Assembly (NCBI RefSeq): GCF_000279145.1
Contig: NC_018178.1
Coordinates: 2,653,800 to 2,685,799, forward strand
Direction of reading: 5' to 3'
Origin: Melioribacter roseus P3M-2
Lineage (GTDB): Bacteria; Bacteroidota; Ignavibacteria; Ignavibacteriales; Melioribacteraceae
Length of the DNA: 32,000 nt
The position numbers were made by a program, and so were the translations under genes. Shown in pieces: positions 7,388 to 12,522 of the stretch. Every line of letters begins with the position of its first letter. The stretch's first letter is position 1. The notes under the pieces are model-generated. The model saw nothing but the letters and a program-made list of their open reading frames with translations. It was not told the DNA's origin and ran no database searches.

Positions 7388-7950
7388 TGACCGAAGAAAT
7401 TATTATCGCGGGTTTCGGGGGACAGGGAGTTTTGTCGCTCGGACAGATTTTATGTTACGGCGGGGTGATTGAAGACAAAGAAGTAAGCTGGATGCCTTCA
7501 TACGGGCCGGAAATGAGAGGCGGCACGGCAAATTGTATTACAATTATCAGCGATTCTAAAATCAGTTCGCCCATCATATCGAAATTCGACACACTCATTG
7601 CGCTCAATCAGCCGTCGCTCGATAAATTCGAAAATTCGATTAAACCCGGCGGGCTGCTTATTTACGAAGCCAGTACGATATTGAATCCTCCCAAAAGGAC
7701 CGATATCGAAATCTTGCCTGTCGAAGCCGCCAACGAAGCCGCCAAATTAAAAAACACGCGCGTGATGAATATGGTTGTGCTGGGCGCATATCTCAAGAAA
7801 AAACCTGTTATTTCTTTCGATACGGCGCTCGAAGCCCTCAAAAAAGTATTGCCTGAAAGATATCATCATCTTATTCCGCTCAACAAACAGGCAATCGAAA
7901 AAGGAATGGAACTGGCGGAAAAAGTAGGCGATATTAATTATCAGAATTAA
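7384..7950 (+). CDS. 2-oxoacid:ferredoxin oxidoreductase gamma subunit (KorC/OorC-like)
   Basis: N-terminal IIIAGFGGQGV motif. The ATG at 7384 overlaps the beta stop (ATGA). The track's start at 7312 would overlap the beta gene by 76 nt and encodes an R-rich non-homologous leader. Confidence 0.88.
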   Translation: MMTEEIIIAGFGGQGVLSLGQILCYGGVIEDKEVSWMPSYGPEMRGGTANCITIISDSKISSPIISKFDTLIALNQPSLDKFENSIKPGGLLIYEASTILNPPKRTDIEILPVEAANEAAKLKNTRVMNMVVLGAYLKKKPVISFDTALEALKKVLPERYHHLIPLNKQAIEKGMELAEKVGDINYQN

Positions 7951-7975
7951 TTTTTGCCGGTTTTCTTATTGAAAT

Positions 7976-8028
7976 GTCGTCGACCTCCCGGGGATTTTGC
8001 ACTATCGGGGGTCGACGACGTTGTTTTA
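7976..8028 (+). terminator. Rho-independent terminator of the oxidoreductase operon
   Basis: A 13-bp GC-rich stem (GTCGTCGACCTCC / GGGGGTCGACGAC, with one G-T pair) is followed by GTTGTTTT. Confidence 0.8.
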
Positions 8029-8036
8029 AAAAAATG

Positions 8037-8065
8037 TTGCATTTATGAACTAAAATGTTGATATT
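8037..8065 (+). promoter_or_regulatory. Candidate CRISPR leader promoter (TTGCAT-N17-GATATT)
   Basis: Sigma70-like hexamers sit in the roughly 50-bp AT-rich leader between the terminator and the first repeat. This is sequence resemblance only, and FCB-group promoters may differ. Confidence 0.25.
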
Positions 8066-8072
8066 TTAACGG

Positions 8073-9492
8073 GTTTTAATCGCACTATTGTAGAATTGAA
8101 ATCTGTTTCCGACGTTTGTTGTTCCGTCGTTTGTTGTTGTTTTAATCGCACTATTGTAGAATTGAAATTTCGCAAAAGCGGAATTAGTCTCTGTGATTGC
8201 AACTCGTTTTAATCGCACTATTGTAGAATTGAAATTATCTTTCTATGTATGCTTTCTCTCGTGCTCTATCCGTTTTAATCGCACTATTGTAGAATTGAAA
8301 TATGCTCAACACATGGTATATGTGTATATGCGAAAACAGTTTTAATCGCACTATTGTAGAATTGAAATTAATTTACAAGCCCGTAGTCAAGCCCGCAAAA
8401 TTCGTTTTAATCGCACTATTGTAGAATTGAAATACGAAATGAAAATTTACAACATAGAACTCGATTACGTTTTAATCGCACTATTGTAGAATTGAAATAA
8501 CAATTCCACCCAGCCCGACGGCTCTCGCCTTCTCGTTTTAATCGCACTATTGTAGAATTGAAATATGGCAGCGAGTCGTTCGTCGTCGATTTCCTTAGCG
8601 TTTTAATCGCACTATTGTAGAATTGAAATAATCGACGATAAGCGAAATTGCGGAGGACTACGGCTGTTTTAATCGCACTATTGTAGAATTGAAATTATCT
8701 TTCTATGTATGCTTTCTCTCGTGCTCTATCCGTTTTAATCGCACTATTGTAGAATTGAAATATGCTCAACACATGGTATATGTGTATATGCGAAAACAGT
8801 TTTAATCGCACTATTGTAGAATTGAAATATATATGAGACATTGCGTCGGCGGATATTCTTCTCCGGGTTTTAATCGCACTATTGTAGAATTGAAATCTTA
8901 GTAAAACGTGGGAATATATCAGTGCGCTGGGAGTTTTAATCGCACTATTGTAGAATTGAAATAACACATGCTAATCATATTAGAAGAAACGCCCGGGTTT
9001 TAATCGCACTATTGTAGAATTGAAATGTACGGACAACCGCCAGAACATTATTATCTATTCGAGTTTTAATCGCACTATTGTAGAATTGAAATGCGCTACT
9101 TCTGCATGCGATTATCAGAATCGAGTCTGAGTTTTAATCGCACTATTGTAGAATTGAAATGAATACGATAATCCGTATGGAGACAAAGCGCTTTCGCGTT
9201 TTAATCGCACTATTGTAGAATTGAAATGCATTACGCCGTATTTGTCGAAGTCCAGTTTTTCGCGTTTTAATCGCACTATTGTAGAATTGAAATAGTTTTA
9301 CGTAAACAAGAAGGTTGTACAGAGGATATGTTTTAATCGCACTATTGTAGAATTGAAATGTCTTGTCTTTCGCTATTACTGCGCCTTCAAGTCGCGTTTT
9401 AATCGCACTATTGTAGAATTGAAATTTGTTATCTTGCGGACGCTATGTAAATCCTCTCTAATGTTTTAATCGCACTATTGTAGAATTGAAAT
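8073..9492 (+). CRISPR. CRISPR array: 22 identical 30-bp repeats plus a degenerate 23rd repeat at 9529, with 22 spacers of 34-38 bp (20 unique)
   Basis: The repeat GTTTTAATCGCACTATTGTAGAATTGAAAT starts at 8073, 8139, 8206, 8272, 8339, 8404, 8469, 8535, 8600, 8666, 8732, 8799, 8867, 8933, 8997, 9063, 9131, 9198, 9264, 9330, 9396 and 9463. The + orientation is inferred from the ATTGAAAT 3' end (a Cas6-type 8-nt handle, as in type I-B/III families) and from repeat degeneration at the right end. Confidence 0.97.
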
Positions 9493-9528
9493 TCAATCCT
9501 GAATCGAATGGGCTGTAGTAATACTTTG

Positions 9529-10650
9529 GTTTTAATCGCACCCGACTCTGACGGGTAGAATTGCCCCGCTTGCAGCGGGGTCTCCGTTCGTCCGTCATTC
9601 GACGGACTCACTTCGAAAATCCGAACTACAAAATTGTCATGCTGTTATGGTTTTAATCGCACCCGACTCTGACGGGTAGTATTATTTTGCCGGCGCTGAT
9701 TTTATCGAAGTGATAGTCCTGTCAGGTTCAAGCGGTCGCTGAGCTTGTCGAAGCGACTTCGTTCGTCCGTCATTCGACGGAATCACTTCGAAAATCCGGA
9801 CTACAAAATTGTCATGCTGTTATGTTTTAATCGCACCCGACTCTGACGGGTAGTATTATTTTGCCGGTCGCTGAGCCTGTCGAAGCGATAGCCCTGTCAG
9901 GTTCAAGCGGTCGCTGAGCCTGTCGAAGCGAAGATTGTGTCCCGTAAAAGTCTACAAGTTTGTAAAAGCAATGTAAGAAAAAATCATTCTACAGAATTAG
10001 AGGATAGTCTTATTGCATCAGAGCGGTCGCTGAGCCTGTCGAAGCGACTACGTTTGTCCGTCAGTCGACGGACTCACTTCGAAAATCCGGACTACAAAAT
10101 TGTCATGCTGTTATGTGTTAATCGCATCCGACTCTGACGGGTAGTATTATTTTGCCGGTTGCTGAGCCTGTCGAAGCGAAGATTGTGTCCCGTAAAAGTC
10201 TTCAAGTTTGCAAAAGCATGTAAGAAAAGAAACATTCTACAGAATTAGAGAATAGTCTTATTGCATCGGAACGGTCGCTGAGCCTGTCGAAGCGACTACG
10301 TTCGTCCGTCATTCGACGGACTCACTTCGAAAATCCGTACTACAAAATAGTCATGCTGTTATGCGTTAATCGTACCCGACTCTGACGGGTAGTATTATTT
10401 TGCCGACGCTGATTTTATCGAAGCGATAATCCTGACAGGTTCAAGCGGTCGCTGAGCTTGTCGAAGCGACTACGTTCGTCCATCAGTCGACGGACTCACT
10501 TCGAAAATCCGGACTACAAAATTGTCATGCTGTTATGTTTTAATCGCACCCGACTCTGACGGGTAGTATTATTTTGCCGGTCGCTGAGCCTGTCGAAGCG
10601 ATAATCCTGTCAGGTTCAAGCGGTCGCTGAGCTCTTCGTTGCGATTTTCT
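9529..10650 (+). repeat. Tandem array of six composite units, each headed by a variant CRISPR repeat (GTTTTAATCGCAC-CCGACTCTGACGG-GTAG..)
   Basis: Variant repeats start at 9529, 9650, 9824, 10115, 10363 and 10537, giving unit lengths of 121, 174, 291, 248 and 174 bp plus a truncated last unit. The units share the modules GGTCGCTGAGCCTGTCGAAGCGA, GTCCGTCATTCGACGGAC and CACTTCGAAAATCCGGACTACAAAATTGTCATGCTGTTAT. No reading frame is conserved between copies. Confidence 0.9.
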
Positions 10651-10696
10651 GCAAACTCCACTCCGAAAAATCGATATAAAAAACTTCCTGAACAAT

Positions 10697-10808
10697 TTGG
10701 CAATCTTGCAATTTGGTAATTTGGTAATCTTGCAATTTTGTAATTTGGTAATCTTGTAATTTGGCAATCTTGCAATTTGTCAATAAACAAATTTGGCAAT
10801 TAACGAAT
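10697..10808. repeat. Imperfect 8-bp-periodic tract (about 14 units of TTGGYAAT / CTTGYAAT)
   Basis: The tract reads TTGGCAAT CTTGCAAT TTGGTAAT TTGGTAAT CTTGCAAT TTTGTAAT TTGGTAAT CTTGTAAT TTGGCAAT CTTGCAAT TTGTCAAT AAACAAAT TTGGCAAT TAACGAAT. It ends 38 nt before the ATG at 10846. Confidence 0.85.
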
Positions 10809-10845
10809 TACTTTCATAGCTTGCTTCATAAAAACGGAGTAAGGT

Positions 10846-11295
10846 ATGAAAAAAAGCGATAAACCGATTATTGTCGAACAGGTTTTTAATGCAAGCAGAA
10901 CCGATGTATGGAATGCCCTTACGGATATTGACGAAATGAAAAAATGGTATTTCGAAAACATTCCCGCTTTTGAGCCCGTCAATGGTTTTAAAACTAGCTT
11001 TAACGTGATTAGCAATGGAAGAAATTTTTTGCATAAATGGGAAGTTACCGAAGTTATTCCCGAAGAACGTATTGCATACACTTGGCGGTTCGAGGGTTAC
11101 GGCGGACTGTCGACGACGGATTTTTTTCTAAAAGAAGAAAACGGAGGCGTACGATTGATTCTTACAGTTACCGTACAGGAAGATTTCCAGGAAAATATCG
11201 AGGAATTCAAAAGAGAAAGCTGCATCGGCGGATGGAATTATTTTATTAACGAAAGACTCAAAAACTATTTGGAATCAATAATCAGAAAGGACTAA
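10846..11295 (+). CDS. SRPBCC / AHSA1 (Activator of Hsp90 ATPase homolog 1-like) family protein
   Basis: About 149 aa, with the family's typical N-terminus (..IIVEQVFNASRTDVWNALTD..MKKWYF) and a C-terminal GGW..FINERLKNYLE region. GGAG lies 8 nt upstream of the ATG. Confidence 0.7.
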   Translation: MKKSDKPIIVEQVFNASRTDVWNALTDIDEMKKWYFENIPAFEPVNGFKTSFNVISNGRNFLHKWEVTEVIPEERIAYTWRFEGYGGLSTTDFFLKEENGGVRLILTVTVQEDFQENIEEFKRESCIGGWNYFINERLKNYLESIIRKD

Positions 11296-11615
11296 TGATG
11301 TCCAGATTTATTTTGTTGTATATAGGCGACGGTAAGTCGGGCGATCCTGAAAAGGATTCGGATAATTATAATAAATATATGGAATGGCTCGGTAAGTTAA
11401 ATAAGATATTAGTTAGCCCTGCGAATCCGTTAAAAGATAATACCATTGTTAAATCCGACAGGATAATTGAAAACGTTAGCGTAACCGGATTAAGCGGATA
11501 TACAATTATTGAAGCGGCGAATATTAAAGAAGCCGCGGAAATTTCAAAAGGGTGTCCGTTTCTCGATTCAGGCGGAGTTATTGAAATTGCGGAATTGATT
11601 CAAATGAATCGGTAA
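11295..11615 (+). CDS. YCII-related (DGPF-like) domain protein
   Basis: Shows the pattern FILLYIGD...GYTIIEAANIKEAAEISKGCPFLDSGGVIEIAEL typical of YciI-like proteins. TAATG overlap with the upstream gene. Confidence 0.65.
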   Translation: MMSRFILLYIGDGKSGDPEKDSDNYNKYMEWLGKLNKILVSPANPLKDNTIVKSDRIIENVSVTGLSGYTIIEAANIKEAAEISKGCPFLDSGGVIEIAELIQMNR

Positions 11616-11745
11616 ATTAATTGGCATTGTAAGACTAATTTTATATCTTAAGACGCATTATCCAATTAATAGTCTTACTCAGGGCAGCCTCCACGAAGGC
11701 ATTAATTACTCCTCATTAATAATAAATAAATTTAGGAGTTACGAG

Positions 11746-12522
11746 ATGAAAAGGTATATCTATGTTTTAACTGTTATAATCTTATTAGCAGGCATTTCAG
11801 AGGGGCAAACAGTTAGAAAAGGTTTCAATTTCCTTTCAATAAGCGATTCAGCGGATACAATTGTTACAACCGTTTTTGCGTCGGGCGACGTTAAAGGTCT
11901 TGCCGCAGGAGAAAATAAAGAAGAGCTTGCCACCAACGGCGCATTGGGCGTTAGCATGGCTATCCGCGATATTTTAATTACCGCTTCCATAAACGTTGCT
12001 ACAACAATGGATACTCTTAATAACACTTTTAGCAACATTATATTGAATCCTTCAAACGGAAGCGGACTTAGATCCGGATTGCTCGACTTTAGAAAGAAAA
12101 AAATATTCAATAATTTTAATCTTCACATGTATGCTACCGTTTCCACAAGCACATGGAAAATTGAAAATGAAATTAAAGACGTTACCGTGGGAGGAATTGG
12201 CGTTCTGATTGAAAGAGCCCTCATAAGCAATAATGAAGAAAATGAAGTTACGCTAAGCTATGAGCTGGGGCTTAGCGTTAGAACTTTAATGGGAGAACTG
12301 GCGTCGAACGAGGAGAAGAGACTTCGATTCTTAAATACTAAAAATTCTGTCTTCGGAGGTTTGGAAGGCGGTATGACTATAAGAGTAAATAATTTGATTG
12401 CGTCTCTTCAATTTTACTATTTTATCGGCGACCATGTTAACGGGGTAACCGGCGGACAGCTCGCTACAGGAATCAGCATAAGCACTAACCTCTTTAGTTT
12501 TAAGAGCAAATATGAAGACTAA
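11746..12522 (+). CDS. Hypothetical secreted protein, probable outer-membrane beta-barrel
   Basis: N-terminal signal peptide ([21 protein letters not shown]). Alternating hydrophobic beta-strand-like segments run to the C-terminus. AGGAG RBS. No family recognised. Confidence 0.6.

Follow-up and report, generated by a model that had tools for sequence, protein, structure and literature searches.

The 32,000-nucleotide (nt) stretch of the Melioribacter roseus P3M-2 genome analysed here, referred to as the window, carries a CRISPR array that is followed by a noncoding, hairpin-rich block at positions 9529 to 10650, the subject of this work. The array holds 22 identical 30-nt repeats between positions 8073 and 9492, with spacers of 34 to 38 nt, and given its regular identical repeats, unique spacers, and polarised spacer turnover it is a type I-B-style CRISPR array. 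Membership of the type I-B repeat family is indicated by the ATTGAAA(C/T) tag in which the repeat ends and by near-identical repeats that adjoin type I or type I-B cas operons elsewhere. Thus, a repeat differing by 1 nt from that of the window lies 3′ of cas6-cas8b-cas7-cas5-cas3-cas4-cas1-cas2 in Melioribacter sp. Ez-97, and an identical repeat is found in locus L030 downstream of a cas3...cas4-cas1 cluster plus leader. The 32-kb window contains no cas genes, and three proteins that it encodes are identical to those of M. roseus P3M-2. The genome paper of strain P3M-2 reported three CRISPR loci, of which the third is cas-less (PMC3534657), and the window array is this third locus. It is flanked by a 2-oxoacid:ferredoxin oxidoreductase operon on one side and by an AHSA1/YCII pair on the other. 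The three strains compared have the 16 spacers closest to the block in common and vary only at the opposite end of the array, which places the leader on the left and makes the plus strand the CRISPR RNA (crRNA) strand. Since the spacer differences are confined to the left end, the array has been acquiring spacers, and the block constitutes its old, or trailer, end.

The block starts one spacer after the last canonical repeat. Six variant repeats, one at the start of each unit (Table 1), are spaced by 121, 174, 291, 248, and 174 nt and bound five paralogous units and a truncated sixth one, exactly as had been proposed in an earlier reading of the bare sequence (the original prediction), all coordinates and motifs of which hold. 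In the variant repeat, the first 13 nt of the repeat are kept and the central TATTG is swapped for the hairpin CCGACTCTGACGGG, with TAGAATTG retained in the first copy. The hairpin GTCCGTC-ATTC-GACGGAC, predicted to close the units together with the adjoining TCACTTCGAAAATCCGGACTAC, was confirmed in 5 copies at no more than 2 mismatches, where none would be expected by chance. Another hairpin, designated H (GGTCGCTGAGCCTGTCGAAGCGA), occurs in 8 copies at no more than 1 mismatch, all of them within the block (9734 to 10601) and in the same orientation; again, none would be expected by chance. The predicted higher-order structure, in which unit 2 resembles unit 5 and unit 3 resembles unit 6, was borne out as well, since units 2 and 3 are 94% identical to units 5 and 6 across 279 nt (9653-9931 versus 10366-10644), and a further duplication links 9908-10155 to 10156-10403 at 92%. 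Finally, the block is indeed noncoding: it contains no open reading frame (ORF) of more than 76 amino acids and none that is common to the units.

Table 1. Features of the array and the adjoining block. Positions refer to the window; Rv, variant repeat; H*, variant of H; X, AT-rich segment; bits, score under the covariance model of the core.
Feature	Position	Strand	Description
CRISPR leader	7951..8072	+	Conserved long hairpin at 7976-8019 (GTCGTCGACCTCCCGGGG...CGGGGGTCGACGAC)
Canonical array	8073..9528	+	22 copies of GTTTTAATCGCACTATTGTAGAATTGAAAT; final spacer at 9493-9528
Variant terminal repeat Rv1	9529..9563	+	13 nt of repeat, hairpin CCGACTCTGACGGG for TATTG, TAGAATTG; final AAAT of repeat replaced
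Intact conserved core, unit 1	9556..9622	+	TAGAATTG, hairpin 1, TCTCCGTTC, hairpin 2, TCACTTCGAAAATCC; 83.5 bits
Hairpin 1 of unit 1	9564-9580	+	CCCCGCTTGCAGCGGGG
Hairpin 2 of unit 1	9590-9607	+	GTCCGTCATTCGACGGAC
Lineage-specific tail of unit 1	9623..9649	+	Runs to next variant repeat
Unit 2	9650..9823	+	Rv, H* (CGCTGATTTTATCGAAGTG, 9694-9712), linker, H (9734-9756), degenerate core (9748-9797), tail; 31.5 bits
Unit 3	9824..10114	+	Rv, H (9866-9888), linker, H (9909-9931), X (9932-10024), H (10025-10047), then degenerate core
Unit 3 degenerate core	10019-10088	+	Tail follows; 35 bits
Unit 4	10115..10362	+	Rv (2 substitutions), H (10157-10179), X (10180-10272), H (10273-10295), degenerate core (10248-10336), tail; 40.2 bits
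Unit 5	10363..10536	+	Rv (3 substitutions), H* (10407-10425), linker, H (10447-10469), degenerate core (10461-10510), tail; 30.7 bits
Unit 6, truncated	10537..10650	+	Rv, H (10579-10601), linker, partial H, into unique sequence
8-bp-periodic AATTTGGTAATCTTGC repeats	10686..10809	+	Close the module just upstream of the AHSA1 gene

Comparison with related genomes indicated that the units are built around a 57-nt two-hairpin core, which appears to be a conserved element of the ends or interiors of Melioribacteraceae type I-B arrays. The core follows the ...GTAGAATTG of the repeat and consists of the GC-rich hairpin 1, the sequence CGTTC, hairpin 2, and UCACUYCGAAAAU. All 13 intact copies start after ...TAGAATTG, with a 5′ repeat junction that is identical to the base and lies four bases past the cut expected for type I-B Cas6b (...GUAGA/AUUG, with the slash at the cut). 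Type I-B crRNAs carry an 8-nt AUUGAAAC tag and have trimmed 3′ ends (PMC3479195); in 13 of 13 intact cores the tag reads AUUG followed by CCCC (or UCCC), leaving 4 of its 8 nt. In an alignment of 11 intact cores, the two hairpins were paired in 96% of the pair cells, and five pairs had changed on both sides (20 cells), with not a single one-sided change; one position of hairpin 2 displays CG, GC, AU, and UA. When, as a control, the 3′ partners were slid by 1 to 3 columns, only 0 to 1 two-sided pair changes were counted, and adding the degenerate copies left the outcome unchanged. RNAalifold recovered both hairpins independently and, in addition, paired the GAAU of the repeat with the conserved GUUC located 5′ of hairpin 2. 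Between lineages the cores are 67 to 74% identical, the tails that follow them are alike only at the level of shuffled sequence, and the single-stranded parts of the core (CGTTC and TCACTYCGAAAAT) are conserved right beside these randomised tails. A covariance model of the core, searched against approximately 1.2 Mb in total, recovered the 13 intact copies at 70 to 94 bits and solely at Melioribacteraceae arrays, with zero matches in 0.82 Mb of metagenome loci bearing H or in six other Ignavibacteria arrays whose repeats belong to the family of the window repeat.

The core is found again in at least four other Melioribacteraceae genomes, where it stands at the distal end of type I-B arrays or within them, mostly beside cas genes; all the comparator genomes are draft assemblies. 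The absence of cas context, stressed in the original prediction, is therefore a property of the window and not of the module, which in relatives follows cas2, leader, and array. In Melioribacter sp. Ez-97, the type I-B operon is succeeded by a leader with a long hairpin of the window type and by 35 repeats, the terminal one of which reads ...GTAGAATTG, then CCCCGCTTACAGCGGGG TCACCGTTC GTCCGTCAGTCGACGGAC TCACTCCGAAAATCC.... The trailer continues with a variant repeat that has the same central hairpin, four copies of H plus linker, a second hairpin 2 with tail, another variant repeat, and H; a further copy of the block stands at the syntenic AHSA1 locus of Ez-97. In Melioribacter sp. OK-6-Me, the syntenic orphan array contains three cores interleaved with two normal repeat-spacer units, and three further cores lie directly 3′ of the leader at the cas-linked locus. 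This cas-adjacent "array" (L171, 11500-12130) comprises approximately 2 spacers and three cassettes and starts with a truncated hairpin-expanded repeat, while the orphan array at the oxidoreductase locus of the same strain has more than 20 normal repeats. The metagenome-assembled genome (MAG) GCA_037481715 has two tandem cores inside a cas-linked type I-B array and one at the end of that array. Rosettibacter firmus shows the same layout with different hairpin sequences, and all that strain 4301-Me has of it is a terminal repeat with a hairpin at its centre. At the position of Rv1, hairpin-expanded repeats are also found in Ez-97, OK-6-Me, 4301-Me, Rosettibacter, and L174, a Joint Genome Institute (JGI) contig from a sample that it shares with an M. 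roseus-like strain.

Contig L174 displays the same layout 3′ of its type I-B operon and carries the 8-bp-periodic AATTTGGTAATCTTGC repeats too, which shows that the whole leader-array-trailer module is common to cas-linked and orphan loci. These periodic repeats were found at 12560-12670 of L174, at the end of the cas-linked trailer, as well as at 5880-5950 of L033 and, as the reverse complement, at approximately 470-590 of L169. They lie just upstream of the next gene at orphan and cas-linked loci alike, and their copy number varies among strains. Between the trailer and the 8-bp repeats, L174 contains a satellite of approximately 1 kb (11500-12520), made of some 22 tandem 46-nt units with a reverse-oriented H-like hairpin in each (CACGCTTCGATAAACTCAGCGTG).

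Within the M. roseus block itself, unit 1 is the only intact copy. Units 2 to 5 scored 30 to 40 bits under the core model, compared with 70 to 94 bits for intact copies. In the degenerate units, hairpin 1 is replaced by one to three copies of H, with a linker or the AT-rich X segment between them, the GAATTG of the repeat has become GTATTA by mutation, and some of the pairing in hairpin 2 is disrupted in units 2 and 5 (one pair in unit 5). The X segment might be a decayed repeat plus spacer; its local alignment to the repeat was not significant, although the core model does align CAGAATTA at 10248 to the repeat end. The arrangement of the units also differs between strains: two JGI metagenome contigs (L033 and L036) from a strain approximately 99.5% identical in the flanking genes have 38 repeats and a differently arranged block, the last unit of which in L033 differs from the M. 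roseus last unit and is more degenerate. This architecture can be derived by deletions between H copies, that is, by H-H recombination, and the strain-to-strain differences point to unequal crossing-over. Short-read contigs break inside the block, which makes copy numbers in metagenome assemblies less certain. Judging by these comparisons, the block is one functional-looking cassette, unit 1, followed by amplified and decaying paralogues.

In contrast to the core, H (GGTCGCTGAGCYTGTCGAAGCGA) belongs to a cosmopolitan family of dispersed hairpins and is not CRISPR specific. An exact 22-mer scan of metagenome contigs returned at least 120 stretches. Among the matches listed, these came from gut, marine, and other samples, had a GC content of 31 to 68%, and had unrelated flanks (loci L041 to L164); the conserved 13-nt loop of H, TGAGCYTGTCGAA, occurred at least 378 times. 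The listed stems vary and yet stay complementary (GGTCGC/GCGACC, GGTCAC/GTGACC, GGACGC/GCGTCC, and others), and the copies are often clustered, occur in both orientations, and lie preferentially outside long ORFs. H has no Rfam entry, and literature searches based on its sequence and on its spurious peptides gave nothing relevant; the family may merit separate study. Clusters of dispersed palindromes of the repetitive extragenic palindromic/bacterial interspersed mosaic element (REP/BIME) type are exemplified by the BIMEs of Escherichia coli. The block resembles these in that short hairpins and linkers form the modules of a mosaic whose copy number varies, and H resembles them in being dispersed in both orientations elsewhere. 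The differences are that the core was found only at CRISPR repeats in the sequence searched and that all H copies of the window point in the same direction.

The original prediction had offered three readings of the block, and each of them captured a part of it. Structured cassettes were indeed found, with a two-hairpin core conserved across species and compensatory changes, but only unit 1 of the window is an intact one. The amplification of a decaying trailer is supported by the low core scores of the later units and by the divergent architecture in nearly identical strains. The reading as palindromic elements is supported for the H module, which is dispersed in very diverse metagenomes and is the only component of the cassette to behave as a dispersed palindrome.

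The explanation we favour, with a probability of roughly one half, is that the block is the form taken in M. roseus by a conserved module of the distal ends of Melioribacteraceae type I-B arrays, a module that would act in cis as an RNA end structure. The homology and amplification parts of this explanation are well supported, whereas the RNA mechanism is inferred. The basic unit begins inside a CRISPR repeat, where a GC-rich hairpin takes the place of the four final bases of the 8-nt crRNA tag. The conserved GUUC can pair back onto the repeat GAAU; hairpin 2, the conserved single-stranded UCACUYCGAAAAU, and a lineage-specific tail follow, and the unit closes at another repeat, usually with 1 to 4 small hairpins inserted centrally. 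Unit 1 (9529-9649) is such a unit, and units 2 to 6 arose by tandem duplication and unequal crossing-over, have dispersed H copies in place of hairpin 1, and are decaying. Transcribed through as the 3′ end of the crRNA precursor (pre-crRNA), the module might act in several ways. The terminal repeat keeps the part that precedes the cut site, so that the last spacer would retain its 3′-side repeat, while the truncated tag and the pairable cut site should prevent the trailer RNA from becoming a loadable crRNA. The stacked stable hairpins at the boundary could further terminate transcripts, stop exonucleases, or insulate against transcription coming from either side. Their predicted stability is −10 to −22 kcal/mol, that of the variant-repeat hairpin being weak (−6 to −12 kcal/mol), and the trailer side can give rise to antisense transcripts in a different organism with a type I-B system (PMC3479195). 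The likeness to intrinsic terminators lies in the GC-rich hairpins at the end of a transcription unit, in the UUUU that follows hairpin 1 in MAG GCA_037481715, and in the scores of five variant repeats of the window (units 2 to 6) as weak terminator-like sites.

Several observations weigh against this explanation. Hairpin 1 of M. roseus and OK-6-Me has UCUCCGUUCG or UCGUCGUUCG after it instead of a U-tract; lacking the tract in most species, the structure is not a textbook terminator. Moreover, MAG GCA_037481715 and OK-6-Me have cassettes inside arrays with normal repeat-spacer units downstream, which is odd for a pure end signal, and six other Ignavibacteria assemblies contain arrays of this repeat family whose trailers are plain. 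As for the structure, the predicted GAAU:GUUC pairing is invariant and thus beyond the reach of covariation, which for the hairpins draws on only some 4 to 5 independent lineages, and palindromes can stay complementary through processes acting at the DNA level. Finally, of the 6 pair cells that are broken among the 11 intact cores, 4 hold A.C or C.A, combinations that would form wobble pairs if read from the opposite strand and that bear on which strand acts; we abandoned the use of wobble-pair counts to assign the acting strand, as they were too few and contradictory.

The best surviving alternative, although an unlikely one, is that the block is neutral junk. CRISPR trailers are usually regarded as decaying leftovers, and here a decaying array end with old degenerate repeats would have taken in REP-like palindromes and grown through slippage and unequal crossing-over, its complementarity being kept by palindrome dynamics at the DNA level and by gene conversion between arrays and not by function. 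Several observations speak for this: the rearrangement of the block from strain to strain, the disrupted hairpins of units 2 and 5 and of the last L033 unit, the cosmopolitan dispersal of H, the satellite of H-like hairpins beyond the L174 trailer, and the clustering of copies by genome, which is expected under concerted evolution. As in ordinary degenerate trailers, the block is leader-distal, its last repeat is off consensus, and it is older and more stable than the leader end. Such decay, however, would hardly keep the single-stranded core parts while the adjacent tails became randomised, hold the 5′ junction to the base in every intact copy, or leave the intact cores free of one-sided changes. 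An ordinary trailer would also not be expected to show the same junction (GAATTG plus GC hairpin) and core across genera, flanking repeats with inserted hairpins, or a unit that is tandemly repeated or lies inside an array.

A more far-reaching claim is that Melioribacteraceae type I-B arrays encode a conserved structured non-guide RNA between hairpin-expanded repeats, which is excised by Cas6b and has a function of its own. We hold this to be rather improbable. If true, it would add an array-borne RNA class distinct from crRNAs and from the known crRNA-like mini-arrays, and such an RNA could titrate or position Cas6b or Cascade, punctuate long arrays with stop-restart signals, or regulate genes. 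More doubtful still is the trans-acting version, in which the repeat-flanked structured RNA would be cut from the pre-crRNA by Cas6b at the flanking, hairpin-expanded repeats and would bind Cas6b or Cascade or regulate cas or other genes, as crRNA-like RNAs do. The flanking repeats do keep both their 5′ 13 nt and the 3′ GTAGAATTG, cassettes lie inside arrays in two genomes, the core is conserved with covariation, and repeat-derived non-guide RNAs are known in type I-B systems (PMC10120712, PMC8501985). Against this stand the half-lost tag, the predicted pairing that covers the cut site, the lack of a spacer-like segment of approximately 36 nt and of an identified target, and the degeneracy of 5 of the 6 units of the window. 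The cassettes resemble crRNA-like mini-arrays, such as CreA of CreTA, CreR, and other regulatory RNAs that are repeat-like (PMC8501985, PMC10120712), in being repeat-derived, non-spacer units linked to type I-B systems, with one flanking repeat well kept and the other degenerate. In mini-arrays, which are enriched near cas genes, a pair of repeat-like sequences encloses a spacer-like segment with a partial match to a promoter beside a protospacer-adjacent motif (PMC10120712). The cassettes depart from them with a structured inter-repeat segment of 86 to 250 nt instead of a spacer-sized one (approximately 30 to 40 nt), an 8-nt 5′ handle reduced to AUUG, no evident target, and a position at the distal array end.

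It is very unlikely that the core is a miniature mobile element, comparable to hairpin-ended miniature inverted-repeat transposable elements derived from IS200/IS605, that inserted next to ...AATTG in the repeats and spread by recombination between repeats. The precise and identical left junction, the two subterminal hairpins, and the 4-nt GTTC at the foot of hairpin 2, complementary to the GAAT of the junction, would suit such an element, as would the tails unrelated between lineages and the copies inside arrays. Nevertheless, no copy was found outside CRISPR arrays in the sequence searched, no transposase was seen in the loci examined, and the sequence after the core is not the AAAT, spacer of approximately 36 nt, and full repeat expected from an insertion; it is a tail of 29 to 32 nt, or of 42 to 62 nt in some lineages, at times followed by a 5′-truncated repeat.

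Other candidates were rejected. A second leader or promoter in the cassette tail found no support, since neither the comparison of the post-hairpin leader with cassette tails of four species nor that of the whole M. roseus leader with its T module exceeded shuffled sequences. A sigma-70-like promoter (TCGACA-17-AATAAT) is predicted on the minus strand of units 2 to 6 only, where it is built from H and the M. roseus-specific repeat tail TATTATTTTGCCGG. Because the combination of H and TATTATTTTGCCGG is absent from the OK-6-Me cassettes and the system is type I-B, an antisense anti-repeat RNA was dismissed as the conserved function. The original prediction had excluded a trans-activating crRNA (tracrRNA) or small CRISPR/Cas-associated RNA (scaRNA) on the ground that the repeats lie on the same strand as the array. 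This logic is invalid, as antisense transcription would yield an anti-repeat RNA, but the conclusion stands, because these RNAs work with a type II (or V) effector and the system here is type I-B. A phage or plasmid origin and an anti-CRISPR mimic were discarded for want of matches: the repeat, the variant repeat, the tail motif, and units 1 and 2 had no match in viral contigs or in phage and plasmid collections apart from a single chance match in coding DNA, whereas viral repeat mimics (solitary repeat units or RNA anti-CRISPRs) are phage- or plasmid-borne. UCACUCC as a mimic of the anti-Shine-Dalgarno sequence failed too, as CUCC reads CUUC in M. roseus and MAG GCA_037481715. In Rfam 15 the block had no match at an E value of 10 or below, the canonical repeats gave only weak CRISPR-DR2 matches, and the OK-6-Me cassettes only chance matches below threshold; literature searches on trailers, terminal repeats, and terminators gave nothing relevant, and the cassette was found neither in Rfam 15 nor in the literature searched.

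Mis-assembly of a shorter repeat into an apparent tandem structure, which the ends of short-read contigs in the block and the metagenomic origin of the alternative architecture might bring to mind, has a negligible probability, since the same 1383 nt recur without any difference in the independent assembly GCA_049325435.1, whose array differs by six spacers (it is without six leader-side units), the authors of the P3M-2 genome report that repeat regions were verified by PCR and sequencing (PMC3534657), and five further assemblies have homologous multi-unit trailers. The block is therefore not an assembly artefact.

Further observations concern the array and its surroundings. The long hairpin of the window leader is also present 5′ of the first repeat in cas-linked or syntenic arrays of Ez-97, OK-6-Me, Rosettibacter, and L174. 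This hairpin (GTCGTCGAC...GTCGACGAC) lies approximately 55 nt 5′ of the first repeat, is followed by an A-run, and is kept in Melioribacteraceae type I-B leaders including that of the orphan array; apart from the window (Table 1), it is located at L165 11408-11451, L171 11403-11447, L172 11420-11464, and L174 8415-8458. Inside the window array, two consecutive spacers are duplicated exactly, together with their repeats (8206-8368 and 8666-8828). The duplicate is absent from GCA_049325435.1 and L033 and points to recent repeat-mediated recombination within the array. Spacers 35 and 41 of the L033 array are almost the same, being variants of a single sequence, a pattern that repeated (primed) acquisition would be expected to leave when directed against variants of one target. 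In an unrelated MAG with an identical repeat (L007, 7236-7325), one repeat is split by an AT-rich palindromic insertion (GAATTCAGAATGCAGAATTCAGAATTCTGAATT), another case of a small palindrome landing within this CRISPR repeat. The end of the oxidoreductase gene and the first intergenic bases (7944-7962, CAGAATTAATTTTTGCCGG) resemble the 3′ part of variant repeats 2 to 6 (TAGTATTATTTTGCCGG; 9678-9693 and paralogues), and TTATTGAAAT stands directly before the leader hairpin. The likeness of 7944-7962 to the variant repeats may be a scar of the arrival of the array module at this locus. On the other side, a relative with 96% identity in the downstream genes has only 81% identity in AHSA1, the gene beside the block (L040 280-711 versus window 10846-11295), and the genes from AHSA1 to MscL are wholly missing in OK-6-Me (L170, 13756-16579); the flank of the block appears to be a recombination hot spot.

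Collectively, our results suggest that selection maintains an "end piece", or punctuation within the array, in some type I-B arrays, since a two-hairpin element that joins the repeat at a fixed base and is flanked by repeats with inserted hairpins persists across genera while the neighbouring sequence randomises. If the element acts at the RNA level, it would bear on the production of the last crRNA, on the insulation of arrays from neighbouring genes and antisense transcription, and on the evolution of non-guide RNAs from repeats. The M. roseus block illustrates how recombination between dispersed hairpins lets such a module expand and decay, and as strain P3M-2 is cultured, direct testing is possible.

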